Part shown: piece after piece, positions 1 through 64,000 of the stretch
How the letters are laid out: the number at the start of each line of letters is the position of its first letter
Position numbering within the stretch: position 1 is the stretch's first letter
Assembly: GCA_051362555.1 (NCBI GenBank)
Contig: CM120648.1
Location: forward strand, 16,116,587-16,180,586
Origin: Lingula anatina
Taxonomy: Eukaryota; Animalia; Brachiopoda
Length of the DNA stretch: 64,000 nucleotides
Reading direction: 5' to 3'
Notes under the pieces: model-generated
The model's input: the letters and a program-made list of their open reading frames with translations, nothing else
Told to the model about the DNA's origin: nothing
The model's database searches: none
Made by a program: the position numbers and the translations under genes

Positions 1-1527
1 AAACTGTACACAGAGGTGACAAGAGAAGGACCAGGGTGCAAGGCAGCAGTACCTAATGTAGCCATACAAGTTGGACTGTCCCAGACAATGATATCAAATG
101 TTGCATGCCGGCGAATTTTGATGTCAGCTCACATCCCTGTACCAGCAACAAGTGGGATGCAGAAACATACAAACAGTGTGCATGACAAGATAGTGGAAGC
201 CAACAGAGGTGACATGGCCAGAAGGCAGGCTCAGCTGCATGAGAACAACCAAGTAATGGGCCTCCCCAGAGACGCACCCATCAGAGTAGAGGGAGATGGA
301 CGTTATAATAACCCCCTGTATTCAGGTGCAGGGAAAACTCCCTTCCAGGCAGGCACACAGGCAGTGTATACAGTAGTTGAAAATCAAACTAAGAGCAAAC
401 AGGTGATTGCTGTGGCAACAAAAAATAAACTCTGTACTACAGCACAAAGACTGAGAAACAAGGGGCAGCATGTGACATGTCCAGATCACCATGGCCACTG
501 CTCTGCTTCAGCACCTCCTAACTCCAGCATTGGCGATGAAGCTGACCTAGCCCAGGCATGTGTGTTGGAAATGCAGCAGGACAACGAGCCAACACGTGTG
601 AAGTACTGCATTCTGGATGGTGATTCATGTGCACTGAAGGGTTTCCAACCTACCTCAGAGACATCAACAAGTGATACCCCTCCGCTTCTACTAAAAGACA
701 CCCGTCACCTCAGTCTTGGACAGAAACGTGCACTGGCCAAAGTATCCTGGAGTTCTGGGATGTTTCCTAGACATCTGAAAATAGAGAAAGAAAAACTGAT
801 TAACAGATTCAATGAGGATGTTAAGGGTCAGTGTGCTATGACATTGTCACTGTGTTATGATGCATGTGCTGGAGATGTGAACAAGATGATAAAAAAACTG
901 ACCTATGCCACTGATGCCATGATTGACTGTTACAATGGAAACCATGACTTATGCAAAAGAGGCAAGTCCTTCACATGTCAGGGCACAAAAAGACACCATT
1001 GGAACAAGCCCATGCTACCAGAAGGCTACAGGCTACATATGACTGATGAGGATAAAGATAAATTAAGACAATGTATTGGTTACAAATTGGACAGAAATGC
1101 AGTGCTCTCTCAGCAATTTAATAGTAACAGTCAAAAAGCAGAAGCAGTTAACCGCACCTATACATCAACAAACCCAAAATGTGTCACCATGACAAGGAAT
1201 TTCAGTGGCAGGATACACAGTGCTGTCCACAAGGTGAACAATGGACCAGGTCAGTCTACAGTGCAGCTACTGGAACATGTTGGAGCCAGCCTTCCACACA
1301 ATTCCCGTGTTCGATGCCAGCTGAAAAGTGAAGATGCACAAGTGAAAAAGAGAAAAGACTCTAAAAAGACTATTAAAAGCAAGCAAAACAGAATAAAAAC
1401 TGTTCTAAGAAACTATCAAATGTATGACTCTAGACCAGAAAAAGTTGTGTACAAAAAAGGCATGCATGACAAGCTGCCACAGAAATCCATTAGATGCCCT
1501 CCAGATCATAATTATAATAAAAAATAA
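1..1527 (+). CDS. DDE transposase, Mutator-like/Kolobok-type (5'-truncated by window edge)
   Basis: Open frame with VEGDGRYNNP, LDGDS, KDTRH, SQKAEAVN motifs. Confidence 0.8.
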   Translation, partial: KLYTEVTREGPGCKAAVPNVAIQVGLSQTMISNVACRRILMSAHIPVPATSGMQKHTNSVHDKIVEANRGDMARRQAQLHENNQVMGLPRDAPIRVEGDGRYNNPLYSGAGKTPFQAGTQAVYTVVENQTKSKQVIAVATKNKLCTTAQRLRNKGQHVTCPDHHGHCSASAPPNSSIGDEADLAQACVLEMQQDNEPTRVKYCILDGDSCALKGFQPTSETSTSDTPPLLLKDTRHLSLGQKRALAKVSWSSGMFPRHLKIEKEKLINRFNEDVKGQCAMTLSLCYDACAGDVNKMIKKLTYATDAMIDCYNGNHDLCKRGKSFTCQGTKRHHWNKPMLPEGYRLHMTDEDKDKLRQCIGYKLDRNAVLSQQFNSNSQKAEAVNRTYTSTNPKCVTMTRNFSGRIHSAVHKVNNGPGQSTVQLLEHVGASLPHNSRVRCQLKSEDAQVKKRKDSKKTIKSKQNRIKTVLRNYQMYDSRPEKVVYKKGMHDKLPQKSIRCPPDHNYNKK

Positions 1528-1585
1528 TAATTTTATATAAACAACGTGGTTTGTTATTTATTTATTAAATTGTGTGGGGTTAATT

Positions 1586-1675
1586 TTACTTAAAAGTTGG
1601 GGTTAACTTTCGCGGTCACACTTAAAAGTTGGGGTTAACTTTCACAGCAGTCACACTTAAAAGTTGGGGTTAAAG
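1586..1675 (+). repeat. Three ~31-35 bp subrepeats (acttaaaagttggggttaa...) leading into the TTAGGG tract, in every unit
   Basis: Direct reading; one subrepeat is missing in the unit at ~5520. Confidence 0.85.
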
Positions 1676-1887
1676 TTAGGGTTAGGGTTAGACTTAGGGT
1701 TAGGGTTAGGGTTAAAGTTAGGGTTAGGGTTAGGGTTAGGGTTAAAGTTAGGGTTAGGGTTAGAGGGTTAGGGTTAGGGTTAGACTTAGGGTTAGGGTTA
1801 AAGTTAGGGTTAGGGTTAGACTTAGGGTTAAAGTTAGGGTTAGGGTTAGACTTAAGGTTAGGGTTAGGGTTAGTGTTAGGGTTAGGG
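1676..1887 (+). repeat. Degenerate (TTAGGG)n tract
   Basis: ttaggg hexamers interspersed with ttagac/ttaaag variants. Confidence 0.95.
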
Positions 1888-1914
1888 TTTGAGCTAGTTT
1901 TAAAAATGGGATAA

Positions 1915-2610
1915 ATATTCTCCTACCGGCAGCTCTCTATCTTGTTAGTAAACAAACCACTGCACTGCTGACATTTAGGAGTTCCCTGCACCAGAGGTCC
2001 CACACTGCAACACAACTATCCTTGGTCCTGGAAAAAAAATGTGCAGTATTTAACATCCTAGCCTGCTAGTTGGCACCAAAATTAACTCTAACAAAACAGG
2101 AAAAATGTCAGAAACAAAGAGGAAAAAATGAAATACAATTTTTATACACTGTATTTTAGCAGAACTACATTTTGTCTGTCCTATACATGTCGTATTCTGT
2201 CATTGTAATGACCTATTTTTAGGGTTACACTTGCCACACAAGGGTAGAAACCACCAAATAATTTCCCTTTGACAACTATACAAAGAAATGCCTGCAAAAC
2301 TGCATGAATAAAAACATTTCCCATCCCCATGGACGGCAGACACACTGACATAACTCCCAATGGCACAAAAATATACTGTCACCAGACATTATTTCTTACC
2401 GGCATTACTTGAACATGTGACCCTTCTGTTTGTAAGCAAACCACTGCACTGCTCACATGTAGTAGCTCCCTCCGCCAGAGGTCTCACGACTGCACCACAA
2501 CTATGCCTGGTCCTGAAAAAAAAAAACTGGCAGTAGTTTACACCCTGGCCTGCTAGTTGATCCCAAATTTAACCCTAGCAACACACAAGAAATACCAGGA
2601 AAAAAAATGA
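1915..2610 (+). repeat. Diverged ~200-bp internal direct repeat pair in the unit spacer (about 1915-2110 and 2390-2610)
   Basis: Shared collinear blocks taccggca, aaaccactgcactgct, ccagaggtc, cacaactat, tggtcctg, gcctgctagttg at offset about 484 bp. Confidence 0.85.
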
Positions 2611-3324
2611 AAAAAAGCACTATTTTTATCTGAATGAACTATATTCGTCTATAACAGATGCTAATTGGCTGATTTATCAGTTTCCGCCCAGAACCAGAAA
2701 CCAAAAATAACAAAATGACAATCCACCTACATATCCGGTTTAAAGTAGTGCTCAAACTTAATCAATCTTTATGAAATATTCACCAAAAACTCAACAGCAA
2801 TCCTGAAACATATCTGGAAAATTTGGTGCCTGTTGTAACAGTACTTATTGATATATTGCAGAATAAAAACATAGTCCAATTTACTGTGTTACACCTGTAA
2901 ATTACAACAAAAATGAGAGTAATTATGGTATGTGAAGACCTGTGATTTTATGAAAAAGCTATATATCACTTCCAATTTTTTTACGTGAACAACTTGTTCC
3001 TTTAGCTAATCAAAAAAAATATTTCCACACACATTTACCTACTATATATGACCATTTTATGGAAAGTTTTAAGCTCCCCACCCCCCTAAATACATAGATA
3101 AATGGATAAAAATGCTGATGCATTATTCCAAACATCTAAGACCTAAAACCAACATTGCATACAAAAGACAAGGTGTCACTTCCTCACATGGAAAAAAAAT
3201 TCCCAGGTTTACATCTGTGTAAACACTTTCCCTGGGGAGTTGAAATCAGTAGGGGCTCTGGGCCAGGTGGCTAGGGACAGGGAGCTAACACAAACATCCT
3301 GCTGCCTGGCCTCCTGCTGCCCTG

Positions 3325-3358
3325 TATAAAAGAGACCCCAGCTCAGCCAAAAATCATA
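3325..3358 (+). promoter_or_regulatory. TATA box and Inr-like site of transposase gene (repeated in each full unit)
   Basis: tataaaag at 3325 with tcata about 30 nt downstream, preceding ATGs at 3386 and 3447. Confidence 0.55.
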
Positions 3359-3446
3359 CCAGCTCACAGAGTTAGTCTGAAGTCCATGAGTGAAAAATAC
3401 TGTCATCTTAGAGGAGAAAAAAAAATTAGAGTTGCCAGGAGACAGA

Positions 3447-5456
3447 ATGCCTGGAAGAAAAAAGGCCAGAAAATGGTATTTTAAGCCAGGCAATACCTAT
3501 GGGTCTCAGTACTGGCAAGGTGTCAGTGAAAAAAAAGCAGACCAGAGGAAAGAAGAAAGTCACCCCTTTACCAGACTGAGTGCTACTCAGTATGAAGACC
3601 TTGTGACAGTGAGGAGAGATGGCACTCTCAGCCTCCATGATGTTGATGGAAATCCTGCTCCAGTGAGGTTGCTGAGACCAGTAAAACCAAAGGCCACAGT
3701 CCAGCAGCCTGAGTCTGATGGCAAGCCACCAGTCAGTGATGATGTCTACAAGCTACACCATCAGGGGAAGCTGCTGCAGTTTTTTAATGACTGCTTTCAA
3801 GAGCATGCAGAGACCAGTGCTGGTTGTGATGGCAGACTTGTCTTCGACCCAAACAAAGAGGAGAAGCGAGGACTGTGTTGGAAGGAGGAAATGAAGTGTG
3901 AGAAATGCAGCTATCACCCTAAAAAGACAAAACTGTACACAGAGGTGACAAGAGAAGGACCAGGGTGCAAGGCAGCAGTACCTAATGTAGCCATACAAGT
4001 TGGACTGTCCCAGACAATGATATCAAATGTTGCATGCCGGCGAATTTTGATGTCAGCTCACATCCCTGTACCAGCAACAAGTGGGATGCAGAAACATACA
4101 AACAGTGTGCATGACAAGATAGTGGAAGCCAACAGAGGTGACATGGCCAGAAGGCAGGCTCAGCTGCATGAGAACAACCAAGTAATGGGCCTCCCCAGAG
4201 ACGCACCCATCAGAGTAGAGGGAGATGGACGTTATAATAACCCCCTGTATTCAGGTGCAGGGAAAACTCCCTTCCAGGCAGGCACACAGGCAGTGTATAC
4301 AGTAGTTGAAAATCAAACTAAGAGCAAACAGGTGATTGCTGTGGCAACAAAAAATAAACTCTGTACTACAGCACAAAGACTGAGAAACAAGGGGCAGCAT
4401 GTGACATGTCCAGATCACCATGGCCACTGCTCTGCTTCAGCACCTCCTAACTCCAGCATTGGCGATGAAGCTGACCTAGCCCAGGCATGTGTGTTGGAAA
4501 TGCAGCAGGACAACGAGCCAACACGTGTGAAGTACTGCATTCTGGATGGTGATTCATGTGCACTGAAGGGTTTCCAACCTACCTCAGAGACATCAACAAG
4601 TGATACCCCTCCGCTTCTACTAAAAGACACCCGTCACCTCAGTCTTGGACAGAAACGTGCACTGGCCAAAGTATCCTGGAGTTCTGGGATGTTTCCTAGA
4701 CATCTGAAAATAGAGAAAGAAAAACTGATTAACAGATTCAATGAGGATGTTAAGGGTCAGTGTGCTATGACATTGTCACTGTGTTATGATGCATGTGCTG
4801 GAGATGTGAACAAGATGATAAAAAAACTGACCTATGCCACTGATGCCATGATTGACTGTTACAATGGAAACCATGACTTATGCAAAAGAGGCAAGTCCTT
4901 CACATGTCAGGGCACAAAAAGACACCATTGGAACAAGCCCATGCTACCAGAAGGCTACAGGCTACATATGACTGATGAGGATAAAGATAAATTAAGACAA
5001 TGTATTGGTTACAAATTGGACAGAAATGCAGTGCTCTCTCAGCACTTTAATAGTAACAGTCAAAAAGCAGAAGCAGTTAACCGCACCTATACATCAACAA
5101 ACCCAAAATGTGTCACCATGACAAGGAATTTCAGTGGCAGGATACACAGTGCTGTCCACAAGGTGAACAATGGACCAGGTCAGTCTACAGTGCAGCTACT
5201 GGAACATGTTGGAGCCAGCCTTCCACACAATTCCCGTGTTCGATGCCAGCTGAAAAGTGAAGATGCACAAGTGAAAAAGAGAAAAGACTCTAAAAAGACT
5301 ATTAAAAGCAAGCAAAACAGAATAAAAACTGTTCTAAGAAACTATCAAATGTATGACTCTAGACCAGAAAAAGTTGTGTACAAAAAAGGCATGCATGACA
5401 AGCTGCCACAGAAATCCATTAGATGCCCTCCAGATCATAATTATAATAAAAAATAA
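3447..5456 (+). CDS. DDE transposase, Mutator-like/Kolobok-type (669 aa from first in-frame ATG, MPGRKK)
   Basis: Intronless ORF; Cys cluster (C..G...CEKC), putative catalytic D (GDGRY), D (DGDS), DxxH, E (KAEAVN); basic C-terminus. Confidence 0.8.
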   Translation: MPGRKKARKWYFKPGNTYGSQYWQGVSEKKADQRKEESHPFTRLSATQYEDLVTVRRDGTLSLHDVDGNPAPVRLLRPVKPKATVQQPESDGKPPVSDDVYKLHHQGKLLQFFNDCFQEHAETSAGCDGRLVFDPNKEEKRGLCWKEEMKCEKCSYHPKKTKLYTEVTREGPGCKAAVPNVAIQVGLSQTMISNVACRRILMSAHIPVPATSGMQKHTNSVHDKIVEANRGDMARRQAQLHENNQVMGLPRDAPIRVEGDGRYNNPLYSGAGKTPFQAGTQAVYTVVENQTKSKQVIAVATKNKLCTTAQRLRNKGQHVTCPDHHGHCSASAPPNSSIGDEADLAQACVLEMQQDNEPTRVKYCILDGDSCALKGFQPTSETSTSDTPPLLLKDTRHLSLGQKRALAKVSWSSGMFPRHLKIEKEKLINRFNEDVKGQCAMTLSLCYDACAGDVNKMIKKLTYATDAMIDCYNGNHDLCKRGKSFTCQGTKRHHWNKPMLPEGYRLHMTDEDKDKLRQCIGYKLDRNAVLSQHFNSNSQKAEAVNRTYTSTNPKCVTMTRNFSGRIHSAVHKVNNGPGQSTVQLLEHVGASLPHNSRVRCQLKSEDAQVKKRKDSKKTIKSKQNRIKTVLRNYQMYDSRPEKVVYKKGMHDKLPQKSIRCPPDHNYNKK

Positions 5457-5572
5457 TAATTTTATATAAACAACGTGGTTTGTTATTTATTTATTAAATT
5501 GTGTGGGGTTAATTTTACTTAAAAGTTGGGGTTAACTTTCACAGCAGTCACACTTAAAAGTTGGGGTTAAAG

Positions 5573-5778
5573 TTAGGGTTAGGGTTAGACATAGGGTTAG
5601 GGTTAGGGTTAAAGTTAGGGTTAGGGTTAGAGGGTTAGGGTTAGGGTAAGGGTTAGGGTTAGACTTGGGGTTAGACTTAGGGTTAGGGTTAAAGTTAGGG
5701 TTAGGGTTAGACTTAGGGTTAAAGTTAGGGTTAGGGTTAGACTTAGGGTTAGGGTTAGGGTTAGTGTTAGGGTTAGGG
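5573..5778 (+). repeat. Degenerate (TTAGGG)n tract
   Basis: Direct reading. Confidence 0.95.
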
Positions 5779-7335
5779 TTTGAGCTAGTTTTAAAAATGG
5801 GATAAATATTCTCCTACCGGCAGCTCTCTATCTTGTTAGTAAACAAACCACTGCACTGCTGACATTTAGGAGTTCCCTGCACCAGAGGTCCCACACTGCA
5901 ACACAACTATCCTTGGTCCTGGAAAAAAAATATGCAGTATTTAACATCCTAGCCTGCTAGTTGGCACCAAAATTAACTCTAACAAAACAGGAAAAATGTC
6001 AGAAACAAAGAGGAAAAAATGAAATACAATTTTTATACACTGTATTTTAGCAGAACTACATTTTGTCTGTCCTACACATATCGTATTCTGTCATTGTAAT
6101 GACCTATTTTTAGGGTTACACTTGCCACACAAGGGTAGAAACCACCAAATAATTTCCCTTTGACAACTATACAAAGAAATGCCTGCAAAACTGCATGAAT
6201 AAAAACATTTCCCATCCCCATGGACGGCAGACACACTGACATAACTCCCAATGGCACAAAAATATACTGTCACCAGACATTATTTCTTACCGGCATTACT
6301 TGAACATGTGACCCTTCTGTTTGTAAGCAAACCACTGCACTGCTCACATGTAGTAGCTCCCTCCGCCAGAGGTCTCACGACTGCACCACAACTATGCCTG
6401 GTCCTGAAAAAAAAACTGGCAGTAGTTTACACCCTGGCCTGCTAGTTGATCCCAAATTTAACCCTAGCAACACACAAGAAATACCAGGAAAAAAAATGAA
6501 AAAAAGCACTATTTTTATCTGAATGAACTATATTCGTCTATAACAGATGCTAATTGGCTGATTTATCAGTTTCCGCCCAGAACCAGAAACCAAAAATAAC
6601 AAAATGACAATCCACCTACATATCCGGTTTAAAGTAGTGCTCAAACTTAATCAATCTTTATGAAATATTCACCAAAAACTCAACAGCAATCCTGAAACAT
6701 ATCTGGAAAATTTGGTGCCTGTTGTAACAGTACTTATTGATATATTGCAGAATAAAAACATAGTCCAATTTACTGTGTTACACCTGTAAATTACAACAAA
6801 AATGAGAGTAATTATGGTATGTGAAGACCTGTGATTTTATGAAAAAGCTATATATCACTTCCAATTATTTTACGTGAACAACTTGTTCCTTTAGCTAATC
6901 AAAAAAAATATTTCCACACACATTTACCTACTATATATGACCATTTTATGGAAAGTTTTAAGCTCCCCACCCCCCTAAATACATAGATAAATGGATAAAA
7001 ATGCTGATGCATTATTCCAAACATCTAAGACCTAAAACCAACATTGCATACAAAAGACAAGGTGTCACTTCCTCACATGGAAAAAAAATTCCCAGGTTTA
7101 CATCTGTGTAAACACTTTCCCTGGGGAGTTGAAATCAGTAGGGGCTCTGGGCCAGGTGGCTAGGGACAGGGAGCTAACACAAACATCCTGCTGCCTGGCC
7201 TCCTGCTGCCCTGTATAAAAGAGACCCCAGCTCAGCCAAAAATCATACCAGCTCACAGAGTTAGTCTGAAGTCCATGAGTGAAAAATACTGTCATCTTAG
7301 AGGAGAAAAAAAAATTAGAGTTGCCAGGAGACAGA

Positions 7336-9345
7336 ATGCCTGGAAGAAAAAAGGCCAGAAAATGGTATTTTAAGCCAGGCAATACCTATGGGTCTCAGTA
7401 CTGGCAAGGTGTCAGTGAAAAAAAAGCAGACCAGAGGAAAGAAGAAAGTCACCCCTTTACCAGACTGAGTGCTACTCAGTATGAAGACCTTGTGACAGTG
7501 AGGAGAGATGGCACTCTCAGCCTCCATGATGTTGATGGAAATCCTGCTCCAGTGAGGTTGCTGAGACCAGTAAAACCAAAGGCCACAGTCCAGCAGCCTG
7601 AGTCTGATGGCAAGCCACCAGTCAGTGATGATGTCTACAAGCTACACCATCAGGGGAAGCTGCTGCAGTTTTTTAATGACTGCTTTCAAGAGCATGCAGA
7701 GACCAGTGCTGGTTGTGATGGCAGACTTGTCTTCGACCCAAACAAAGAGGAGAAGCGAGGACTGTGTTGGAAGGAGGAAATGAAGTGTGAGAAATGCAGC
7801 TATCACCCTAAAAAGACAAAACTGTACACAGAGGTGACAAGAGAAGGACCAGGGTGCAAGGCAGCAGTACCTAATGTAGCCATACAAGTTGGACTGTCCC
7901 AGACAATGATATCAAATGTTGCATGCCGGCGAATTTTGATGTCAGCTCACATCCCTGTACCAGCAACAAGTGGGATGCAGAAACATACAAACAGTGTGCA
8001 TGACAAGATAGTGGAAGCCAACAGAGGTGACATGGCCAGAAGGCAGGCTCAGCTGCATGAGAACAACCAAGTAATGGGCCTCCCCAGAGACGCACCCATC
8101 AGAGTAGAGGGAGATGGACGTTATAATAACCCCCTGTATTCAGGTGCAGGGAAAACTCCCTTCCAGGCAGGCACACAGGCAGTGTATACAGTAGTTGAAA
8201 ATCAAACTAAGAGCAAACAGGTGATTGCTGTGGCAACAAAAAATAAACTCTGTACTACAGCACAAAGACTGAGAAACAAGGGGCAGCATGTGACATGTCC
8301 AGATCACCATGGCCACTGCTCTGCTTCAGCACCTCCTAACTCCAGCATTGGCGATGAAGCTGACCTAGCCCAGGCATGTGTGTTGGAAATGCAGCAGGAC
8401 AACGAGCCAACACGTGTGAAGTACTGCATTCTGGATGGTGATTCATGTGCACTGAAGGGTTTCCAACCTACCTCAGAGACATCAACAAGTGATACCCCTC
8501 CGCTTCTACTAAAAGACACCCGTCACCTCAGTCTTGGACAGAAACGTGCACTGGCCAAAGTATCCTGGAGTTCTGGGATGTTTCCTAGACATCTGAAAAT
8601 AGAGAAAGAAAAACTGATTAACAGATTCAATGAGGATGTTAAGGGTCAGTGTGCTATGACATTGTCACTGTGTTATGATGCATGTGCTGGAGATGTGAAC
8701 AAGATGATAAAAAAACTGACCTATGCCACTGATGCCATGATTGACTGTTACAATGGAAACCATGACTTATGCAAAAGAGGCAAGTCCTTCACATGTCAGG
8801 GCACAAAAAGACACCATTGGAACAAGCCCATGCTACCAGAAGGCTACAGGCTACATATGACTGATGAGGATAAAGATAAATTAAGACAATGTATTGGTTA
8901 CAAATTGGACAGAAATGCAGTGCTCTCTCAGCACTTTAATAGTAACAGTCAAAAAGCAGAAGCAGTTAACCGCACCTATACATCAACAAACCCAAAATGT
9001 GTCACCATGACAAGGAATTTCAGTGGCAGGATACACAGTGCTGTCCACAAGGTGAACAATGGACCAGGTCAGTCTACAGTGCAGCTACTGGAACATTTTG
9101 GAGCCAGCCTTCCACACAATTCCCGTGTTCGATGCCAGCTGAAAAGTGAAGATGCACAAGTGAAAAAGAGAAAAGACTCTAAAAAGACTATTAAAAGCAA
9201 GCAAAACAGAATAAAAACTGTTCTAAGAAACTATCAAATGTATGACTCTAGACCAGAAAAAGTTGTGTACAAAAAAGGCATGCATGACAAGCTGCCACAG
9301 AAATCCATTAGATGCCCTCCAGATCATAATTATAATAAAAAATAA
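7336..9345 (+). CDS. DDE transposase copy
   Basis: Near-identical to 3447-5456. Confidence 0.8.
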   Translation: MPGRKKARKWYFKPGNTYGSQYWQGVSEKKADQRKEESHPFTRLSATQYEDLVTVRRDGTLSLHDVDGNPAPVRLLRPVKPKATVQQPESDGKPPVSDDVYKLHHQGKLLQFFNDCFQEHAETSAGCDGRLVFDPNKEEKRGLCWKEEMKCEKCSYHPKKTKLYTEVTREGPGCKAAVPNVAIQVGLSQTMISNVACRRILMSAHIPVPATSGMQKHTNSVHDKIVEANRGDMARRQAQLHENNQVMGLPRDAPIRVEGDGRYNNPLYSGAGKTPFQAGTQAVYTVVENQTKSKQVIAVATKNKLCTTAQRLRNKGQHVTCPDHHGHCSASAPPNSSIGDEADLAQACVLEMQQDNEPTRVKYCILDGDSCALKGFQPTSETSTSDTPPLLLKDTRHLSLGQKRALAKVSWSSGMFPRHLKIEKEKLINRFNEDVKGQCAMTLSLCYDACAGDVNKMIKKLTYATDAMIDCYNGNHDLCKRGKSFTCQGTKRHHWNKPMLPEGYRLHMTDEDKDKLRQCIGYKLDRNAVLSQHFNSNSQKAEAVNRTYTSTNPKCVTMTRNFSGRIHSAVHKVNNGPGQSTVQLLEHFGASLPHNSRVRCQLKSEDAQVKKRKDSKKTIKSKQNRIKTVLRNYQMYDSRPEKVVYKKGMHDKLPQKSIRCPPDHNYNKK

Positions 9346-9493
9346 TAATTTTATATAAACAACGTGGTTTGTTATTTATTTATTAAATTGTGTGGGGTTA
9401 ATTTTACTTAAAAGTTGGGGTTAACTTTCGCGGTCACACTTAAAAGTTGGGGTTAACTTTCACAGCAGTCACACTTAAAAGTTGGGGTTAAAG

Positions 9494-9699
9494 TTAGGGT
9501 TAGGGTTAGACATAGGGTTAGGGTTAGGGTTAAAGTTAGGGTTAGGGTTAGAGGGTTAGGGTTAGGGTAAGGGTTAGGGTTAGACTTGGGGTTAGACTTA
9601 GGGTTAGGGTTAAAGTTAGGGTTAGGGTTAGACTTAGGGTTAAAGTTAGGGTTAGGGTTAGACTTAGGGTTAGGGTTAGGGTTAGTGTTAGGGTTAGGG
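9494..9699 (+). repeat. Degenerate (TTAGGG)n tract
   Basis: Direct reading; same variant pattern as 5573-5778. Confidence 0.95.
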
Positions 9700-11255
9700 T
9701 TTGAGCTAGTTTTAAAAATGGGATAAATATTCTCCTACCGGCAGCTCTCTATCTTGTTAGTAAACAAACCACTGCACTGCTGACATTTAGGAGTTCCCTG
9801 CACCAGAGGTCCCACACTGCAACACAACTATCCTTGGTCCTGGAAAAAAATATGCAGTATTTAACATCCTAGCCTGCTAGTTGGCACCAAAATTAACTCT
9901 AACAAAACAGGAAAAATGTCAGAAACAAAGAGGAAAAAATGAAATACAATTTTTATACACTGTATTTTAGCAGAACTACATTTTGTCTGTCCTACACATA
10001 TCGTATTCTGTCATTGTAATGACCTATTTTTAGGGTTACACTTGCCACACAAGGGTAGAAACCACCAAATAATTTCCCTTTGACAACTATACAAAGAAAT
10101 GCCTGCAAAACTGCATGAATAAAAACATTTCCCATCCCCATGGACGGCAGACACACTGACATAACTCCCAATGGCACAAAAATATACTGTCACCAGACAT
10201 TATTTCTTACCGGCATTACTTGAACATGTGACCCTTCTGTTTGTAAGCAAACCACTGCACTGCTCACATGTAGTAGCTCCCTCCGCCAGAGGTCTCACGA
10301 CTGCACCACAACTATGCCTGGTCCTGAAAAAAAAACTGGCAGTAGTTTACACCCTGGCCTGCTAGTTGATCCCAAATTTAACCCTAGCAACACACAAGAA
10401 ATACCAGGAAAAAAAATGAAAAAAAGCACTATTTTTATCTGAATGAACTATATTCGTCTATAACAGATGCTAATTGGCTGATTTATCAGTTTCCGCCCAG
10501 AACCAGAAACCAAAAATAACAAAATGACAATCCACCTACATATCCGGTTTAAAGTAGTGCTCAAACTTAATCAATCTTTATGAAATATTCACCAAAAACT
10601 CAACAGCAATCCTGAAACATATCTGGAAAATTTGGTGCCTGTTGTAACAGTACTTATTGATATATTGCAGAATAAAAACATAGTCCAATTTACTGTGTTA
10701 CACCTGTAAATTACAACAAAAATGAGAGTAATTATGGTATGTGAAGACCTGTGATTTTATGAAAAAGCTATATATCACTTCCAATTATTTTACGTGAACA
10801 ACTTGTTCCTTTAGCTAATCAAAAAAAATATTTCCACACACATTTACCTACTATATATGACCATTTTATGGAAAGTTTTAAGCTCCCCACCCCCCTAAAT
10901 ACATAGATAAATGGATAAAAATGCTGATGCATTATTCCAAACATCTAAGACCTAAAACCAACATTGCATACAAAAGACAAGGTGTCACTTCCTCACATGG
11001 AAAAAAAATTCCCAGGTTTACATCTGTGTAAACACTTTCCCTGGGGAGTTGAAATCAGTAGGGGCTCTGGGCCAGGTGGCTAGGGACAGGGAGCTAACAC
11101 AAACATCCTGCTGCCTGGCCTCCTGCTGCCCTGTATAAAAGAGACCCCAGCTCAGCCAAAAATCATACCAGCTCACAGAGTTAGTCTGAAGTCCATGAGT
11201 GAAAAATACTGTCATCTTAGAGGAGAAAAAAAAATTAGAGTTGCCAGGAGACAGA

Positions 11256-13265: not shown

Positions 13266-13413
13266 TAATTTTATATAAACAACGTGGTTTGTTATTTATT
13301 TATTAAATTGTGTGGGGTTAATTTTACTTAAAAGTTGGGGTTAACTTTCGCGGTCACACTTAAAAGTTGGGGTTAACTTTCACAGCAGTCACACTTAAAA
13401 GTTGGGGTTAAAG

Positions 13414-22482: not shown

Positions 22483-22491
22483 ACACACACA

Positions 22492-49744: not shown

Positions 49745-49892
49745 TAATTTTATATAAACAACGTGGTTTGTTATTTATTTATTAAATTGTGTGGGGTTAA
49801 TTTTACTTAAAAGTTGGGGTTAACTTTCGCGGTCACACTTAAAAGTTGGGGTTAACTTTCACAGCAGTCACACTTAAAAGTTTGGGTTAAAG

Positions 49893-53676: not shown

Positions 53677-53824
53677 TAATTTTATATAAACAACGTGGTT
53701 TGTTATTTATTTATTAAATTGTGTGGGGTTAATTTTACTTAAAAGTTGGGGTTAACTTTCGCGGTCACACTTAAAAGTTGGGGTTAACTTTCACAGCAGT
53801 CACACTTAAAAGTTGGGGTCAAAG

Positions 53825-54030
53825 TTAGGGTTAGGGTTAGACTTAGGGTTAGGGTTAGGGTTAAAGTTAGGGTTAGGGTTAGGGTTAAAGTTAGGGTTAG
53901 GGTTAGAGGGTTAGACTTAGGGTTAGGGTTAGACTTAGGGTTAGACTTAGGGTTAGGGTTAAAGTTAGGGTTAGGGTTAGACTTAGGGTTAAAGTTAGGG
54001 TTAGGGTTAGACTTAGGGTTAGGGTTAGGG
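53825..54030 (+). repeat. Degenerate (TTAGGG)n tract
   Basis: Direct reading. Confidence 0.95.
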
Positions 54031-55522
54031 TTTGAGCTAGTTTTAAAAATGGGATAAATATTCTCCTACCGGCAGCTCTCTATCTTGTTAGTAAACAAAC
54101 CACTGCACTGCTGACATTTAGGAGTTCCCTGCACCAGAGGTCCCACACTGCAATACAACTATCCTTGGTCCTGGAAAAAAAATATGCAGTATTTAACATC
54201 CTAGCCTGCTAGTTGGCACCAAAATTAACTCTAACAAAACAGGAAAAATGTCAGAAACAAAGAGGAAAAAATGAAATACAATTTTTATACACTGTATTTT
54301 AGCAGAACTACATTTTGTCTGTCCTATACATGTCGTATTCTGTCATTGTAATGACCTATTTTTAGGGTTACACTTGCCACACAAGGGTAGAAACCACCAA
54401 ATAATTTCCCTTTGACAACTATACAAAGAAATGCCTGCAAAACTGCATGAATAAAAACATTTCCCATCCCCATGGACGGCAGACACACTGACATAACTCC
54501 CAATGGCACAAAAATATACTGTCACCAGACATTATTTCTTACCGGCATTACTTGAACATGTGACCCTTCTGTTTGTAAGCAAACCACTGCACTGCTCACA
54601 TGTAGTAGCTCCCTCCGCCAGAGGTCTCACGACTGCACCACAACTATGCCTGGTCCTGAAAAAAAAACTGGCAGTAGTTTACACCCTGGCCTGCTAGTTG
54701 ATCCCAAATTTAACCCTAGCAACACACAAGAAATACCAGGAAAAAAAATGAAAAAAAGCACTATTTTTATCTGAATGAACTATATTCGTCTATAACAGAT
54801 GCTAATTGGCTGATTTATCAGTTTCCGCCCAGAACCAGAAACCAAAAATAACAAAATGACAATCCACCTACATATCCGGTTTAAAGTAGTGCTCAAACTT
54901 AATCAATCTTTATGAAATATTCACCAAAAGCTCAACAGCAATCCTGAAACATATCTGGAAAATTTGGTGCCTGTTGTAACAGTACTTATTGATATATTGC
55001 AGAATAAAAACATAGTCCAATTTACTGTGTTACACCTGTAAATTACAACAAAAATGAGAGTAATTATGGTATATGAAGACCTGTGATTTTATGAAAAAGC
55101 TATATATCACTTCCAATTTTTTTACATGAACAACTTGTTCCTTTAGCTAATCAAAAAAAATATTTCCACACACATTTACCTACTATGACCATTTTATGGA
55201 AAGTTTTAAGCTCCCCACCCCCCTAAATACATAGATAAATGGATAAAAATGCTGATGCATTATTCCAAACATCTAAGACCTAAAACCAACATTGCATACA
55301 AAAGACAAGGTGTCACTTCCTCACATGGAAAAAAAATTCCCAGGTTTACATCTGTGTAAACACTTTCCCTGGGGAGTTGAAATCAGTAGGGGCTCTGGGC
55401 CAGGTGGCTAGGGACAGGGAGCTAACACAAACATCCTGCTGCCTGGCCTCCTGCTGCCCTGTATAAAAGAGACCCCAGCTCAGCCAAAAATCATACCAGC
55501 TCACAGAGTTAGTCTGAAGTCC

Positions 55523-57602
55523 ATGAGTGAAAAATACTGTCATCTTAGAGGAGAAAAAAAATTAGAGTTGCCAGGAGACAGAATGCCTGGAAGAAAAAAG
55601 GCCAGAAAATGGTATTTTAAGCCAGGCAATACCTATGGGTCTCAGTACTGGCAAGGTGTCAGTGAAAAAAAAGCAGACCAGAGGAAAGAAGAAAGTCACC
55701 CCTTTACCAGACTGAGTGCTACTCAGTATGAAGACCTTGTGACAGTGAGGAGAGATGGCACTCTCAGCCTCCATGATGTTGATGGAAATCCTGCTCCAGT
55801 GAGGTTGCGGAGACCAGTAAAACCAAAGGCCACAGTCCAGCAGCCTGAGTCTGATGGCAAGCCACCAGTCAGTGATGATGTCTACAAGCTACACCATCAG
55901 GGGAAGCTGCTGCAGTTTTTTAATGACTGCTTTCAAGAGCATGCAGAGAAGAGTGCTGGTTGTGATGGCAGACTTGTCTTCGACCCAAACAAAGAGGAGA
56001 AGCGAGGACTGTGTTGGAAGGAGGAAATGAAGTGTGAGAAATGCAGGTATCACTCTAAAAAGACAAAACTGTACACAGAGGTGACAAGAGAAGGACCAGG
56101 GTGCAAGGCAGCAGTACCTAATGTAGCCATACAAGTTGGACTGTCCCAGACAATGATATCAAATGTTGCATGCCGGCGAATTTTGATGTCAGCTCACATC
56201 CCTGTACCAGCAACAAGTGGGATGCAGAAACATACAAACAGTGTGCATGACAAGATAGTGGAAGCCAACAGAGGTGACATGGCCAGAAGGCGGGCTCAGC
56301 TGCATGAGAACAACCAAGTAATGGGCCTCCCCAGAGATGCACCCATCAGAGTAGAGGGAGATGGACGTTATAATAACCCCCTGTATTCAGGTGCAGGGAA
56401 AACTCCCTTCCAGGCAGGCACACAGGCAGTGTATACAGTAGTTGAAAATCAAACTAAGAGCAAACAGGTGATTGCTGTGGCAACAAAAAATAAACTCGAT
56501 CTGTACTACAGCACAAAGACTGAGAAACAAGGGGCAGCGTGTGACATGTCCAGATCACCATGGCCACTGCTCTGCTTCAGCACCTCCTAACTCCAGCATT
56601 GGCGATGAAGCTGACCTAGCCCAGGCATGTGTGTTGGAAATGCAGCAGGACAACGAGCCAACACGTGTGAAGTACTGCATTCTGGATGGTGATTCACGTG
56701 CACTGAAGGGTTTCCAACCTACCTCAGAGACATCAACAAGTAATACATGTACCCCTCCGCTTCTACTAAAAGACACCCGTCACCTCAGTCTTGGACAGAA
56801 ACGTGCACTGGCCAAAGTATCCTGGAGTTCTGGGATGTTTCCTAGACATCTGAAAATAGAGAAAGAAAAACTGATAAACAGATTCAATGAGGATGTTAAG
56901 CGTCAGTGTGCTATGACATTGTCACTGTGTTATGATGCATGTGCTGGAGATGTGAACAAGATGATAAAAAAACTGACCTATGCCACTGATGCCATGATTG
57001 ACTGTTACAATGGAAACCATGACTTATGCAAAAGAGGCAAGTCCTTCACATGTCAGGGCACAAAAAGACACCATTGGAACAAGCCCATGCTACCAGAAGG
57101 CTACAGGCTACATATGACTGATGAGGATAAAGATAAATTAAGACAATGTATTGGTTACAAATTGGACAGAAATGCAGTGCTCTCTCAGCACTTTAATAGT
57201 AACAGTCAAAAAGCAGAAGCAGTTAACCGCACCTATACATCAACAAACCCAAAATGTGTCACCATGACAAGGAATTTCAGTGGCAGGATACACAGTGCTG
57301 TCCACAAGGTGAACAATGGACCAGGTCAGTCTACAGTGCAGCTACTGGAACATGTTGGAGCCAGCCTTCCACACAATTCCCGTGTTCGATGCCAGCTGAA
57401 AAGTGAAGATGCACAAGTGAAAAAGAGAAAAGACTCTAAAAAGACTATTAAAAGCAAGCAAAACAGAATAAAAACTGTTCTAAGAAACTATCAAATGTAT
57501 GACTCTAGACCAGAAAAAGTTGTGTACAAAAAAGGCATGCATGACAAGCTGCCACAGAAATCCATTAGATGCCCTCCAGATCATAATTATAATAAAAAAT
57601 AA
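55523..57602 (+). pseudogene. Frameshifted transposase copy
   Basis: Same 4-bp insertion at ~56498. Confidence 0.85.
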
Positions 57603-57750
57603 TAATTTTATATAAACAACGTGGTTTGTTATTTATTTATTAAATTGTGTGGGGTTAATTTTACTTAAAAGTTGGGGTTAACTTTCGCGGTCACACTTAA
57701 AAGTTGGGGTTAACTTTCACAGCAGTCACACTTAAAAGTTTGGGTTAAAG

Positions 57751-57962
57751 TTAGGGTTAGGGTTAGACTTAGGGTTAGGGTTAGGGTTAAAGTTAGGGTT
57801 AGGGTTAGGGTTAGGGTTAAAGTTAGGGTTAGGGTTACAGGGTTAGACTTAGGGTTAGGGTTAGACTTAGGGTTAGACTTAGGGTTAGGGTTAAAGTTAG
57901 GGTTAGGGTTAGACTTAGGGTTAAAGTTAGGGTTAGGGTTAGACTTAGGGTTAGGGTTAGGG
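57751..57962 (+). repeat. Degenerate (TTAGGG)n tract
   Basis: Direct reading. Confidence 0.95.
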
Positions 57963-59454
57963 TTTGAGCTAGTTTTAAAAATGGGATAAATATTCTCCTA
58001 CCGGCAGCTCTCTATCTTGTTAGTAAACAAACCACTGCACTGCTGACATTTAGGAGTTCCCTGCACCAGAGGTCCCACACTGCAACACAACTATCCTTGG
58101 TCCTGGAAAAAAAATATGCAGTATTTAACATCCTAGCCTGCTAGTTGGCACCAAAATTAACTCTAACAAAACAGGAAAAATGTCAGAAACAAAGAGGAAA
58201 AAATGAAATACAATTTTTATACACTGTATTTTAGCAGAACTACATTTTGTCTGTCCTATACATGTCGTATTCTGTCATTGTAATGACCTATTTTTAGGGT
58301 TACACTTGCCACACAAGGGTAGAAACCACCAAATAATTTCCCTTTGACAACTATACAAAGAAATGCCTGCAAAACTGCATGAATAAAAACATTTCCCATC
58401 CCCATGGACGGCAGACACACTGACATAACTCCCAATGGCACAAAAATATACTGTCACCAGACATTATTTCTTACCGGCATTACTTGAACATGTGACCCTT
58501 CTGTTTGTAAGCAAACCACTGCACTGCTCACATGTAGTAGCTCCCTCCGCCAGAGGTCTCACGACTGCACCACAACTATGCCTGGTCCTGAAAAAAAAAC
58601 TGGCAGTAGTTTACACCCTGGCCTGCTAGTTGATCCCAAATTTAACCCTAGCAACACACAAGAAATACCAGGAAAAAAAATGAAAAAAAGCACTATTTTT
58701 ATCTGAATGAACTATATTCGTCTATAACAGATGCTAATTGGCTGATTTATCAGTTTCCGCCCAGAACCAGAAACCAAAAATAACAAAATGACAATCCACC
58801 TACATATCCGGTTTAAAGTAGTGCTCAAACTTAATCAATCTTTATGAAATATTCACCAAAAGCTCAACAGCAATCCTGAAACATATCTGGAAAATTTGGT
58901 GCCTGTTGTAACAGTACTTATTGATATATTGCAGAATAAAAACATAGTCCAATTTACTGTGTTACACCTGTAAATTACAACAAAAATGAGAGTAATTATG
59001 GTATATGAAGACCTGTGATTTTATGAAAAAGCTATATATCACTTCCAATTTTTTTACATGAACAACTTGTTCCTTTAGCTAATCAAAAAAAATATTTCCA
59101 CACACATTTACCTACTATGACCATTTTATGGAAAGTTTTAAGCTCCCCACCCCCCTAAATACATAGATAAATGGATAAAAATGCTGATGCATTATTCCAA
59201 ACATCTAAGACCTAAAACCAACATTGCATACAAAAGACAAGGTGTCACTTCCTCACATGGAAAAAAAATTCCCAGGTTTACATCTGTGTAAACACTTTCC
59301 CTGGGGAGTTGAAATCAGTAGGGGCTCTGGGCCAGGTGGCTAGGGACAGGGAGCTAACACAAACATCCTGCTGCCTGGCCTCCTGCTGCCCTGTATAAAA
59401 GAGACCCCAGCTCAGCCAAAAATCATACCAGCTCACAGAGTTAGTCTGAAGTCC

Positions 59455-61534
59455 ATGAGTGAAAAATACTGTCATCTTAGAGGAGAAAAAAAATTAGAGT
59501 TGCCAGGAGACAGAATGCCTGGAAGAAAAAAGGCCAGAAAATGGTATTTTAAGCCAGGCAATACCTATGGGTCTCAGTACTGGCAAGGTGTCAGTGAAAA
59601 AAAAGCAGACCAGAGGAAAGAAGAAAGTCACCCCTTTACCAGACTGAGTGCTACTCAGTATGAAGACCTTGTGACAGTGAGGAGAGATGGCACTCTCAGC
59701 CTCCATGATGTTGATGGAAATCCTGCTCCAGTGAGGTTGCGGAGACCAGTAAAACCAAAGGCCACAGTCCAGCAGCCTGAGTCTGATGGCAAGCCACCAG
59801 TCAGTGATGATGTCTACAAGCTACACCATCAGGGGAAGCTGCTGCAGTTTTTTAATGACTGCTTTCAAGAGCATGCAGAGAAGAGTGCTGGTTGTGATGG
59901 CAGACTTGTCTTCGACCCAAACAAAGAGGAGAAGCGAGGACTGTGTTGGAAGGAGGAAATGAAGTGTGAGAAATGCAGCTATCACTCTAAAAAGACAAAA
60001 CTGTACACAGAGGTGACAAGAGAAGGACCAGGGTGCAAGGCAGCAGTACCTAATGTAGCCATACAAGTTGGACTGTCCCAGACAATGATATCAAATGTTG
60101 CATGCCGGCGAATTTTGATGTCAGCTCACATCCCTGTACCAGCAACAAGTGGGATGCAGAAACATACAAACAGTGTGCATGACAAGATAGTGGAAGCCAA
60201 CAGAGGTGACATGGCCAGAAGGCGGGCTCAGCTGCATGAGAACAACCAAGTAATGGGCCTCCCCAGAGATGCACCCATCAGAGTAGAGGGAGATGGACGT
60301 TATAATAACCCCCTGTATTCAGGTGCAGGGAAAACTCCCTTCCAGGCAGGCACACAGGCAGTGTATACAGTAGTTGAAAATCAAACTAAGAGCAAACAGG
60401 TGATTGCTGTGGCAACAAAAAATAAACTCGATCTGTACTACAGCACAAAGACTGAGAAACAAGGGGCAGCGTGTGACATGTCCAGATCACCATGGCCACT
60501 GCTCTGCTTCAGCACCTCCTAACTCCAGCATTGGCGATGAAGCTGACCTAGCCCAGGCATGTGTGTTGGAAATGCAGCAGGACAACGAGCCAACACGTGT
60601 GAAGTACTGCATTCTGGATGGTGATTCACGTGCACTGAAGGGTTTCCAACCTACCTCAGAGACATCAACAAGTAATACATGTACCCCTCCGCTTCTACTA
60701 AAAGACACCCGTCACCTCAGTCTTGGACAGAAACGTGCACTGGCCAAAGTATCCTGGAGTTCTGGGATGTTTCCTAGACATCTGAAAATAGAGAAAGAAA
60801 AACTGATAAACAGATTCAATGAGGATGTTAAGCGTCAGTGTGCTATGACATTGTCACTGTGTTATGATGCATGTGCTGGAGATGTGAACAAGATGATAAA
60901 AAAACTGACCTATGCCACTGATGCCATGATTGACTGTTACAATGGAAACCATGACTTATGCAAAAGAGGCAAGTCCTTCACATGTCAGGGCACAAAAAGA
61001 CACCATTGGAACAAGCCCATGCTACCAGAAGGCTACAGGCTACATATGACTGATGAGGATAAAGATAAATTAAGACAATGTATTGGTTACAAATTGGACA
61101 GAAATGCAGTGCTCTCTCAGCACTTTAATAGTAACAGTCAAAAAGCAGAAGCAGTTAACCGCACCTATACATCAACAAACCCAAAATGTGTCACCATGAC
61201 AAGGAATTTCAGTGGCAGGATACACAGTGCTGTCCACAAGGTGAACAATGGACCAGGTCAGTCTACAGTGCAGCTACTGGAACATGTTGGAGCCAGCCTT
61301 CCACACAATTCCCGTGTTCGATGCCAGCTGAAAAGTGAAGATGCACAAGTGAAAAAGAGAAAAGACTCTAAAAAGACTATTAAAAGCAAGCAAAACAGAA
61401 TAAAAACTGTTCTAAGAAACTATCAAATGTATGACTCTAGACCAGAAAAAGTTGTGTACAAAAAAGGCATGCATGACAAGCTGCCACAGAAATCCATTAG
61501 ATGCCCTCCAGATCATAATTATAATAAAAAATAA
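59455..61534 (+). pseudogene. Frameshifted transposase copy
   Basis: Same 4-bp insertion at ~60430. Confidence 0.85.
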
Positions 61535-61682
61535 TAATTTTATATAAACAACGTGGTTTGTTATTTATTTATTAAATTGTGTGGGGTTAATTTTACTTAA
61601 AAGTTGGGGTTAACTTTCGCGGTCACACTTAAAAGTTGGGGTTAACTTTCACAGCAGTCACACTTAAAAGTTTGGGTTAAAG

Positions 61683-61894
61683 TTAGGGTTAGGGTTAGAC
61701 TTAGGGTTAGGGTTAGGGTTAAAGTTAGGGTTAGGGTTAGGGTTAGGGTTAAAGTTAGGGTTAGGGTTAGAGGGTTAGACTTAGGGTTAGGGTTAGACTT
61801 AGGGTTAGACTTAGGGTTAGGGTTAAAGTTAGGGTTAGGGTTAGACTTAGGGTTAAAGTTAGGGTTAGGGTTAGACTTAGGGTTAGGGTTAGGG
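61683..61894 (+). repeat. Degenerate (TTAGGG)n tract
   Basis: Direct reading. Confidence 0.95.
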
Positions 61895-63386
61895 TTTGAG
61901 CTAGTTTTAAAAATGGGATAAATATTCTCCTACCGGCAGCTCTCTATCTTGTTAGTAAACAAACCACTGCACTGCTGACATTTAGGAGTTCCCTGCACCA
62001 GAGGTCCCACACTGCAACACAACTATCCTTGGTCCTGGAAAAAAAATATGCAGTATTTAACATCCTAGCCTGCTAGTTGGCACCAAAATTAACTCTAACA
62101 AAACAGGAAAAATGTCAGAAACAAAGAGGAAAAAATGAAATACAATTTTTATACACTGTATTTTAGCAGAACTACATTTTGTCTGTCCTATACATGTCGT
62201 ATTCTGTCATTGTAATGACCTATTTTTAGGGTTACACTTGCCACACAAGGGTAGAAACCACCAAATAATTTCCCTTTGACAACTATACAAAGAAATGCCT
62301 GCAAAACTGCATGAATAAAAACATTTCCCATCCCCATGGACGGCAGACACACTGACATAACTCCCAATGGCACAAAAATATACTGTCACCAGACATTATT
62401 TCTTACCGGCATTACTTGAACATGTGACCCTTCTGTTTGTAAGCAAACCACTGCACTGCTCACATGTAGTAGCTCCCTCCGCCAGAGGTCTCACGACTGC
62501 ACCACAACTATGCCTGGTCCTGAAAAAAAAACTGGCAGTAGTTTACACCCTGGCCTGCTAGTTGATCCCAAATTTAACCCTAGCAACACACAAGAAATAC
62601 CAGGAAAAAAAATGAAAAAAAGCACTATTTTTATCTGAATGAACTATATTCGTCTATAACAGATGCTAATTGGCTGATTTATCAGTTTCCGCCCAGAACC
62701 AGAAACCAAAAATAACAAAATGACAATCCACCTACATATCCGGTTTAAAGTAGTGCTCAAACTTAATCAATCTTTATGAAATATTCACCAAAAACTCAAC
62801 AGCAATCCTGAAACATATCTGGAAAATTTGGTGCCTGTTGTAACAGTACTTATTGATATATTGCAGAATAAAAACATAGTCCAATTTACTGTGTTACACC
62901 TGTAAATTACAACAAAAATGAGAGTAATTATGGTATATGAAGACCTGTGATTTTATGAAAAAGCTATATATCACTTCCAATTTTTTTACATGAACAACTT
63001 GTTCCTTTAGCTAATCAAAAAAAATATTTCCACACACATTTACCTACTATGACCATTTTATGGAAAGTTTTAAGCTCCCCACCCCCCTAAATACATAGAT
63101 AAATGGATAAAAATGCTGATGCATTATTCCAAACATCTAAGACCTAAAACCAACATTGCATACAAAAGACAAGGTGTCACTTCCTCACATGGAAAAAAAA
63201 TTCCCAGGTTTACATCTGTGTAAACACTTTCCCTGGGGAGTTGAAATCAGTAGGGGCTCTGGGCCAGGTGGCTAGGGACAGGGAGCTAACACAAACATCC
63301 TGCTGCCTGGCCTCCTGCTGCCCTGTATAAAAGAGACCCCAGCTCAGCCAAAAATCATACCAGCTCACAGAGTTAGTCTGAAGTCC

Positions 63387-64000
63387 ATGAGTGAAAAATA
63401 CTGTCATCTTAGAGGAGAAAAAAAATTAGAGTTGCCAGGAGACAGAATGCCTGGAAGAAAAAAGGCCAGAAAATGGTATTTTAAGCCAGGCAATACCTAT
63501 GGGTCTCAGTACTGGCAAGGTGTCAGTGAAAAAAAAGCAGACCAGAGGAAAGAAGAAAGTCACCCCTTTACCAGACTGAGTGCTACTCAGTATGAAGACC
63601 TTGTGACAGTGAGGAGAGATGGCACTCTCAGCCTCCATGATGTTGATGGAAATCCTGCTCCAGTGAGGTTGCGGAGACCAGTAAAACCAAAGGCCACAGT
63701 CCAGCAGCCTGAGTCTGATGGCAAGCCACCAGTCAGTGATGATGTCTACAAGCCAGAGGCGTAACCAGACCTTTAAAAATTGTACGCACAGATTTTGAAA
63801 ATTCCCAGGTACGATTATATTCCTTGAAAAATACACTAAATTAATGGAGAATAATATCATGGTTGGCTCAAAAAATTGTACGCACAGTGCATCCGTGCGT
63901 ATGCCTGGTTACGCCCCTGCAAGCTACACCATCAGGGGAAGCTGCTGCAGTTTTTTAATGACTGCTTTCAAGAGCATGCAGAGAAGAGTGCTGGTTGTGA
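63387..64000 (+). pseudogene. Transposase copy interrupted by MITE (runs off right edge)
   Basis: ORF stops at 63764 inside a 166-bp insertion and resumes at 63920. Confidence 0.85.
63754..63919. mobile_element. 166-bp MITE with 15-bp TIR and 5-bp TSD (hAT-like termini)
   Basis: TIR cagaggcgtaaccag / ctggttacgcccctg; CAAGC duplicated at 63749-63753 and 63920-63924; empty site visible in other copies. Confidence 0.92.

Follow-up and report, generated by a model that had tools for sequence, protein, structure and literature searches.

Tandem arrays of a KolobokP-like transposon with a telomere-like tract in the brachiopod Lingula anatina

KolobokP is a lineage of Kolobok DNA transposons that forms (LTDR-INT)n multimers, in which a long terminal direct repeat (LTDR) alternates with an internal region (INT) (Kojima and Bao 2022, PMC9587614; cited here from the available parts of the paper and its supplements). 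The LTDR is about 450 or 660 bp long and has its own short terminal inverted repeat (TIR), perfect or imperfect; in some families the TIR measures 1-8 bp (Table S1 of PMC9587614). The target site duplication (TSD) is TTAA in classical Kolobok and variable, 3-5 bp, in KolobokP. Most families, not all, carry a His-Me finger nuclease downstream on the complementary strand. Multimers of five or more units are displayed in Figure S2 of that paper. Kojima and Bao give unequal crossover as the first route of multimerisation, and that the nuclease induces multimers is an untested proposal of theirs. Here we describe a window, i.e. the whole stretch of 64,000 nucleotides analysed, from Lingula anatina (assembly GCA_051362555.1, contig CM120648.1, positions 16,116,587 to 16,180,586), which holds two head-to-tail arrays of a transposase unit with a telomere-like tract (Table 1). 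The arrays are probably KolobokP (LTDR-INT)n multimers in which the tract and a broken LTDR hold the position of the nuclease. In the same reading, the tract was likely acquired once, and unequal crossover, not transposition, likely multiplied the unit where it stood.

A comparison of the Lingula unit with KolobokP shows agreement in the transposase motifs, both zinc fingers, a GG..CC LTDR of ~450 bp, a monomer of ~4.4 kb, multimers and signs of solo LTDRs. It differs from typical KolobokP in that the His-Me nuclease is missing, the tract and a broken older LTDR are found instead, and the right TIR is decayed. The original prediction was of an undescribed element. This could not be upheld, as the ~450-bp LTDR and the (LTDR-INT)n multimers are already published for KolobokP, and so are nuclease-less families and, in KolobokP-2_PaMi, a tract. 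By most of its features, all read from sequence, the Lingula element is KolobokP, a local variant of a described element and not a new class. The host phylum Brachiopoda is outside the seven phyla published for KolobokP in the available parts of PMC9587614. Neither Lingula nor brachiopods are mentioned in the text of that paper, and Lingula is not mentioned in its supplements. No account of this Lingula family or of a brachiopod KolobokP was found in the literature, Repbase itself lying outside the search.

Unit architecture and transposase

The predicted set of 11 units of ~3.9 kb plus one deleted unit in two head-to-tail arrays agrees with the window coordinates and copy counts. The transposase copies number 11, of which two are truncated at the edges of the window; in one further unit the open reading frame (ORF) is deleted. 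Units are spaced by 3889-3932 bp and share 98-99.4% identity; the nine complete ones are 2-22 substitutions apart, tract excluded. Each unit runs from the LTDR through a 753-bp leader, the transposase, convergent polyadenylation-like signals, the tract cassette and an LTDR fragment to the next LTDR. A KolobokP monomer in Lingula would measure 4,377 bp, which is inside the range of Table S1 (PMC9587614).

Since a 447-bp LTDR is found in every unit, we read the arrays as KolobokP (LTDR-INT)n multimers. Its ten complete copies measure 446-448 bp, and a truncated eleventh lies at the end of array 1. The left end at 13980 scores 18.5 with a profile of the left ends of 11 relatives, while the next best site scores 4.3; the score was reached in none of 500 shuffles. 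The termini, GG and CC, have the Kolobok form 5'-RR ... YY-3', and the pairing of the two ends was counted by eye. The only non-coding ATTGG of the unit lies near the right end at 14426, and six of the 11 relatives have such a box 24-28 nt before the right TIR. Both ends are also seen in other samples: a contig of organism B starts matching at 13979, preceded by 178 unlike letters, and in RNA run X17 four reads each break off at 13978 and at 14426. In sample X5 the summed contig depth is 7,291-30,576 across the LTDR bins and 1,076 immediately behind. From this surplus and the read ends we infer that solo LTDRs are abundant. One X5 contig diverges at 14412 into letters that give a near-perfect right TIR, which points to a related, more abundant LTDR subfamily keeping the right TIR that the array LTDR has lost. 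The earlier statement that no clear TIR lies between units thus holds literally, but a 447-bp LTDR with a decayed TIR does sit there.

Plain scans of the unit for TIRs or inverted repeats missed the LTDR. Two other delimitations were tried. An INT-only array, with the LTDR excised at TATA 14387, was dropped when 13980 and 14426 emerged as the ends of the LTDR; this TATA resembles the INT-INT junction of KolobokP-4_MyCo (PMC9587614, available parts). An expanded LTDR of 1,180 bp (13284-14463), the top inverted-repeat match, is AT-rich, has no GG start and has no read support.

The transposase copy at 3447 (P0001) matches PF20700 with an E value of 4.5e-43 in a Pfam profile search. Its catalytic residues are D260, D367, a DxxH motif at 394-397 and E542. 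A CCHC zinc finger (C306/C321/H324/C328) follows the first D, and a second finger (C471/H476/C479/C487) lies between DxxH and E. Asp260, Asp367, His397 and Glu542 are invariant in all 22 aligned proteins and Asp394 is nearly so; Cys306, Cys328, Cys479 and Cys487 are invariant as well. These motifs agree with the KolobokP alignment passages available from Data S3 of PMC9587614. The AlphaFold model (mean predicted local distance difference test score, pLDDT, 80.1) has an RNase H-type fold, which is closest to the ISCth4, P-element and Hermes transposases. The transposase family has 364 representatives at E up to 1e-30. The predicted relationship to Kolobok is therefore well founded, in PF20700, the DDE, DxxH and zinc-finger motifs, the fold and the relatives. 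MuDR/Mutator elements are marked by long TIRs and an 8-10-bp TSD. An assignment to MuDR/Mutator, as the Pfam label has it, was rejected: the unit has no long TIR, and relatives that share the Pfam family show KolobokP architecture.

Nine ORFs are full-length. Five of them are intact (669 or 671 aa) and four, neighbours in array 2, have a common 4-bp frameshift insertion. A tenth ORF is disrupted by a MITE (miniature inverted-repeat transposable element) of 166 bp, so that five of the ten ORFs judged are broken. The claim of a coding array stands for the five intact ORFs and fails for the four frameshifted ones among nine and the MITE-broken tenth. Small insertions are common to neighbours, with 6 bp in-frame and 4 bp frameshifting in the ORFs of array 2; three leaders of array 1 also carry a 4-bp insertion. 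These insertions in the array 2 ORFs and array 1 leaders could be excision footprints.

The telomere-like tract and the missing nuclease

The tract cassette begins 46 bp past the stop codon, and its TTAGGG core about 143 bp past it, which fits the ~150 bp given in the original prediction. The window contains 11 tracts, five in one array and six in the other, always with the G-rich strand on plus. Lying about 350 bp away from the left end of the LTDR, the tract is internal and present on one strand only. The core is 209-245 bp long in the seven cleanly measured tracts, its length differing between units. Summed over the 11 tracts, the core tokens are 245 TTAGGG, 56 TTAGAC and 52 TTAAAG. The longest pure TTAGGG run has six copies, and at least four consecutive TTAGGG are found in 8 of the 11. 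The variant hexamers form recurring higher-order patterns which differ from unit to unit, so slippage has shaped the tract since its origin. Per 120 bp, 16 telomere-like hexamers are counted in the tract, compared with no more than 3 in the 23-kb spacer between the arrays and no more than 5 in each of 35 related loci obtained from a metagenome scan. The template of the Lingula telomerase RNA is CUAACCCUAAC (supplement row, available part of PMC8480181), thus TTAGGG is the host telomeric repeat. The telomeric nature of the tract is accordingly supported by a density far above chance and qualified by its degeneracy, with TTAGAC and TTAAAG variants mixed in.

The nuclease is common among the relatives. 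Of the 35 loci, 21 have a minus-strand His-Me finger ORF, as do 15 of the 19 informative ones, i.e. those with the transposase C-terminus present and at least 550 bp of downstream DNA; PF05551 was confirmed by Pfam in all four ORFs tested. LTDR candidates of 448-492 bp with GG..CC TIRs are found at 12 of the loci, and eight contigs are circular or have overlapping ends, a head-to-tail structure. None of the 35 loci has a telomere-like tract. The search for homologues that also sit beside TTAGGG tracts thus gave a negative answer, as expected for a one-off capture followed by local amplification, with the nearest tested relative 52% identical. In the Lingula unit no His-Me nuclease ORF or remnant is detected (best E 21), nor in the spacer between the arrays. 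Measured against the position of the His-Me ORF in the relatives, the tract is indeed where the nuclease was expected. No relatives were found among 56 candidate stretches of viral contigs.

In a quick tree of 43 rows, with seven short loci left out, the window transposase clusters with P0003, P0004 and L001 at a Shimodaira-Hasegawa-like approximate likelihood ratio (SH-aLRT) support of 100. L001 is the nearest relative with DNA. It is 52% identical, has a nuclease directly behind the transposase, a 448-bp LTDR candidate and a 5' internal part of similar length (Table 1). Given this grouping and the nuclease of L001, the His-Me nuclease was most likely lost, and the tract gained, in the Lingula family. 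The convergent polyadenylation-like signals behind the transposase are likely what remains of the 3' end of the nuclease gene that was lost. L005, L007, L020 and L022 are KolobokP-like and have enough downstream DNA, with neither a detectable His-Me nuclease nor a tract. Loss of the nuclease seems to have happened repeatedly in the tree. Two published families, KolobokP-1_LG and KolobokP-1_SaGl, are likewise without an apparent His-Me nuclease (PMC9587614, available parts). As both are filed under KolobokP, the nuclease is typical, not required. Motif searches of the supplement, which can miss motifs split by line ends or gaps, found no long tract in either; about two consecutive CCCTAA are located near the end of the record preceding KolobokP-1B_LG-I.

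Telomeric repeats are not discussed in the text of PMC9587614. As in the Lingula unit, however, the available consensus of KolobokP-2_PaMi (Patiria miniata) has a degenerate TTAGGG-like tract in its internal region. That tract is the shorter of the two and is located upstream of the transposase, behind which there is nuclease-like sequence, judged by eye. The TBE elements of Oxytricha are also DDE DNA transposons bearing host telomeric repeats (PMC4724952, available parts). They differ in that they belong to Tc1/mariner, carry the repeats within their TIRs, and are dispersed and excised in development, while the Lingula tract is internal. Interstitial telomeric sequences (ITS) at double-strand breaks, including those with telomerase RNA component sequence (TERC-ITS), offer a possible route of origin, and telomerase-assisted break repair has a precedent in vertebrates (PMC8537989, available parts). 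Compared with break-inserted ITS, the Lingula tract is degenerate, has higher-order variants, and its flanks show no telomerase-RNA match. Four short flank motifs are absent from the available part of the PMC8480181 supplement, its rows being compared by eye, and an Rfam search gave one chance match only (E 0.11). On the evidence of these four motifs, the row comparison and the Rfam search, a TERC-ITS origin was rejected.

Copy variation, other samples and RNA

Among the copies, 23 variant codons are nonsynonymous and 5 synonymous, with a ratio of 3.7:1 expected (p = 0.82), and the copies drift neutrally. Adjacent units are most alike, and the frameshift is common to four neighbours in array 2. 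Amplification by unequal crossover is most likely, because neighbours are most alike, four adjacent units share the frameshift, the right TIR is decayed and the variants are neutral. The observed/expected ratio of CpG is 0.18 in the element, compared with 0.76 in the spacer and 0.92 in a hillarin exon; in the transposase codons, NCG is found once and NCA 69 times. Such strong depletion points to long methylation while the frame stayed open. Among the 35 relatives only L024 has a ratio as low (0.19). It is very improbable that the host has domesticated the transposase gene and maintains it as a tandem array of coding copies. The frames are open despite the extreme CpG erosion, and runs of three organism A studies hold at least half of the family words, as domestication would have it; yet there is no purifying selection among the copies, four units carry the frameshift, a MITE has inserted, and the complete transposon architecture is kept.

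At least half of the family words occur in nine runs of organism A, which belong to three studies; the best of these runs may come from the source sample. In X5, contigs over the ORF-tract, tract-LTDR and LTDR-leader junctions are 1,076-1,266 deep, the same as the ORF (1,186), with 1,184-1,244 for ORF-tract and tract-LTDR. This equality of junction and ORF depth means that the tract is fixed across the family and the samples. One-off variant contigs of X5 are 40-100 deep compared with 1,076-1,266 for family contigs, and the ratio suggests tens of copies, depth as such being no copy number. All internal unit junctions recur in the independent samples X5 and X9. These data also bear on whether the arrays were inflated by mis-assembly of dispersed copies, which we consider hardly credible. 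No read spans units, and the contigs are blind to monomer versus multimer because none covers a whole LTDR with both flanks. On the other side, the units have distinct variants that are shared by neighbours in order, the tract structure differs between units, the internal junctions are seen in both samples, and KolobokP normally forms multimers. Contigs of a diverged sister subfamily (16390-17190; about 88% alike, frameshifted, with other sequence past the stop) are found in X2, X5 and X9.

RNA is scarce: about 6% of each run yielded 592 reads for X14 and 68 for X17. Most first mates are on plus, and depth is about 8-11-fold over the first half of the ORF. In X14 the depth peaks at 105 beside the tract, where X17 has no reads. 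The strand is uncalibrated by any control gene, and other loci may be the source of reads near the tract. In libraries of the common stranded type, the RNA would hint at antisense transcription, running the same way as the lost nuclease gene. At 17236, the site equivalent to the deletion endpoint of the unit at 41779, which is at the cassette's first bases, 25 X14 RNA molecules start. A poly(A) transcript from another locus includes a related LTDR piece (13678-13747, 14165-14255; 12-32 reads per loose end, X14).

The same samples address whether the family still transposes and spreads ITS genome-wide, as the original prediction supposed. We regard this as quite unlikely. In its favour, five ORFs are intact and keep every catalytic residue, some published families have TIRs as short as 1-8 bp, there are two separate arrays 23 kb apart, and at one RNA loose end the LTDR ends at 14426 in another flank. 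Against it stand the decayed right TIR, neutral drift and five broken ORFs of ten judged. Moreover, among the loose ends listed none has the tract cassette or an array-type LTDR in varied flanks, and no dispersed tract-bearing copy with a TSD is seen in the window and the sample contigs. The few RNA reads, with first mates mostly on plus, would be antisense in common stranded libraries (uncalibrated), which also argues against it.

The spacer between the arrays contains hillarin, a host gene for a KY-like Ig domain protein, which separates the two arrays; its exon matches mark the host as Lingula anatina. Its exons for residues 1-164 were not found by tblastn of the window. Further local tandem duplications are present in the spacer at 20720-21092, 23216-23840, 27494-30071, 32702-34117 and 37936-39121, with periods of 182 bp, 160 bp, ~1.4 kb, ~1 kb and ~600 bp. 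The 327-bp repeat at the right end of array 1 (17997-18828) is joined via a short ATG microhomology; a high-copy repeat cuts in at 18829, and contig depth rises there.

Table 1. Features of the window (positions in the window; strand +, - or not assigned)
Feature	Position	Strand	Description
Array 1	1..18326	+	five KolobokP (LTDR-INT) units, head-to-tail; first cut by window edge
Array 1 last LTDR	from 17910	+	final ~30 bp missing
Array 2	41779..64000 (window end)	+	head-to-tail; ORF-deleted unit, one intact, four frameshifted, last unit MITE-broken and cut by window edge
LTDR	13980..14426	+	447 bp, GG...CC ends, TIR 12/18, ATTGG box 26 nt before right end
Complete LTDR copies (10)	starts 2242, 6133, 10053, 13980, 42611, 46527, 50459, 54385, 58317, 62249	+	
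Internal region, 5' part	14427..15179	+	753 bp; 720 bp in nearest relative L001
TATA-like box	15058	+	within 5' internal region; promoter role inferred
Transposase	15180..17189	+	intronless DDE, 669 aa, PF20700
Other intact transposase copies	3447-5456, 7336-9345, 11256-13265, 43809-45824	+	
Convergent polyadenylation-like signals	17178..17229		AATAAA on + at 17178, on - at 17219 and 17223
Tract cassette	17236..17558	+	2.6 copies of ~35-bp repeat, then degenerate TTAGGG/TTAGAC/TTAAAG core
Other cassette starts	1574, 5503, 9392, 13312, 41919, 45871, 49791, 53723, 57649, 61581	+	
Broken older LTDR	13654..13942	+	~78% like LTDR positions 14128-14411; without termini; between tract and LTDR in every unit
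ORF-deleted unit	41779..42259	+	promoter remnant and 10 codons fused to first bases of tract cassette
LTDR-piece tandem	17997..18828	+	2.5 copies of 327-bp LTDR piece, right end of array 1
MITE	63754..63919	not assigned	166 bp, 15-bp TIR, 5-bp TSD (CAAGC); inside last transposase copy
Hillarin exons	35335..37592	-	between arrays; 90-97% identity per exon to hillarin [Lingula anatina] protein (99% in one search)

Origin of the tract and its meaning

The preferred reading, a single acquisition followed by amplification in place, would proceed in three steps. The ancestral KolobokP would have had a nuclease at the present tract position, as L001 does. A single rearrangement would then have swapped the nuclease gene for the tract and the LTDR fragment. 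Capture, or growth by slippage, of a telomere-like microsatellite beside an old LTDR is a reasonably probable route for this swap; repair of a double-strand break with the help of telomerase is a conceivable one, to be held tentatively. Later slippage would have acted on either route, given the recurring variant hexamers. Finally, homologous recombination between LTDRs or units would have extended and homogenised the arrays and spread the frameshift to four neighbours. On this view the tract would be a passenger; the arrays would form a macrosatellite that is young and eroded by methylation.

Several observations weigh against this reading. Neither a native array end nor a TSD is present in the window, where both array ends are non-native, and no two units are bridged by a long read or a contig. 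The right LTDR end alone is not among the top profile matches, and a nucleotide profile (nhmmer) of the LTDRs of 11 relatives gave no match in the unit. The closest relatives, P0003 and P0004 (59-60% identical), are known as protein only, and the nearest relative tested for the tract is at 52%. Five transposase ORFs are intact, and CpG loss with an open frame implies a long past protein constraint. The tract is fixed family-wide, as function would also predict.

Such a function would be that the tract took over the job proposed for the nuclease, as a fragile, G-quadruplex-prone or shelterin-bound site where breaks beside the LTDR drive unequal crossover. We consider it unlikely. It is equally doubtful that, with the tract driving multimerisation, the former nuclease transcription unit now yields telomere-repeat RNA antisense into the transposase. 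In favour of a driving role, the tract sits exactly at the nuclease position in all 11 units with their 3' region in the window, and has ORF-like depth in other samples. At least four consecutive TTAGGG are kept in most tracts (8/11), tract length varies by unit, the deletion of the 41779 unit ends at the cassette's first bases, and arrays of at least five and seven units exist with no nuclease in cis. The origin is single, however, with no recurrence in the 35 relatives, including the four nuclease-less ones, and about one third of the hexamers are variant. Furthermore, long direct repeats multimerise unaided, and the nuclease of a sister family could act in trans.

On the preferred reading, with the tract as a passenger, the finding extends the known host range of KolobokP to Brachiopoda. 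Arrays of such length with no cis nuclease bear on the proposal of Kojima and Bao that the nuclease induces multimers. The unit also represents one way for interstitial telomere-like sequence to multiply, which is relevant to TTAGGG signals in fluorescence in situ hybridization (FISH) and to telomere calling in lophotrochozoan assemblies. Should the tract after all drive recombination, which we think improbable, this would amount to a functional replacement of a kind new for transposons, with a protein swapped for a host telomere sequence.

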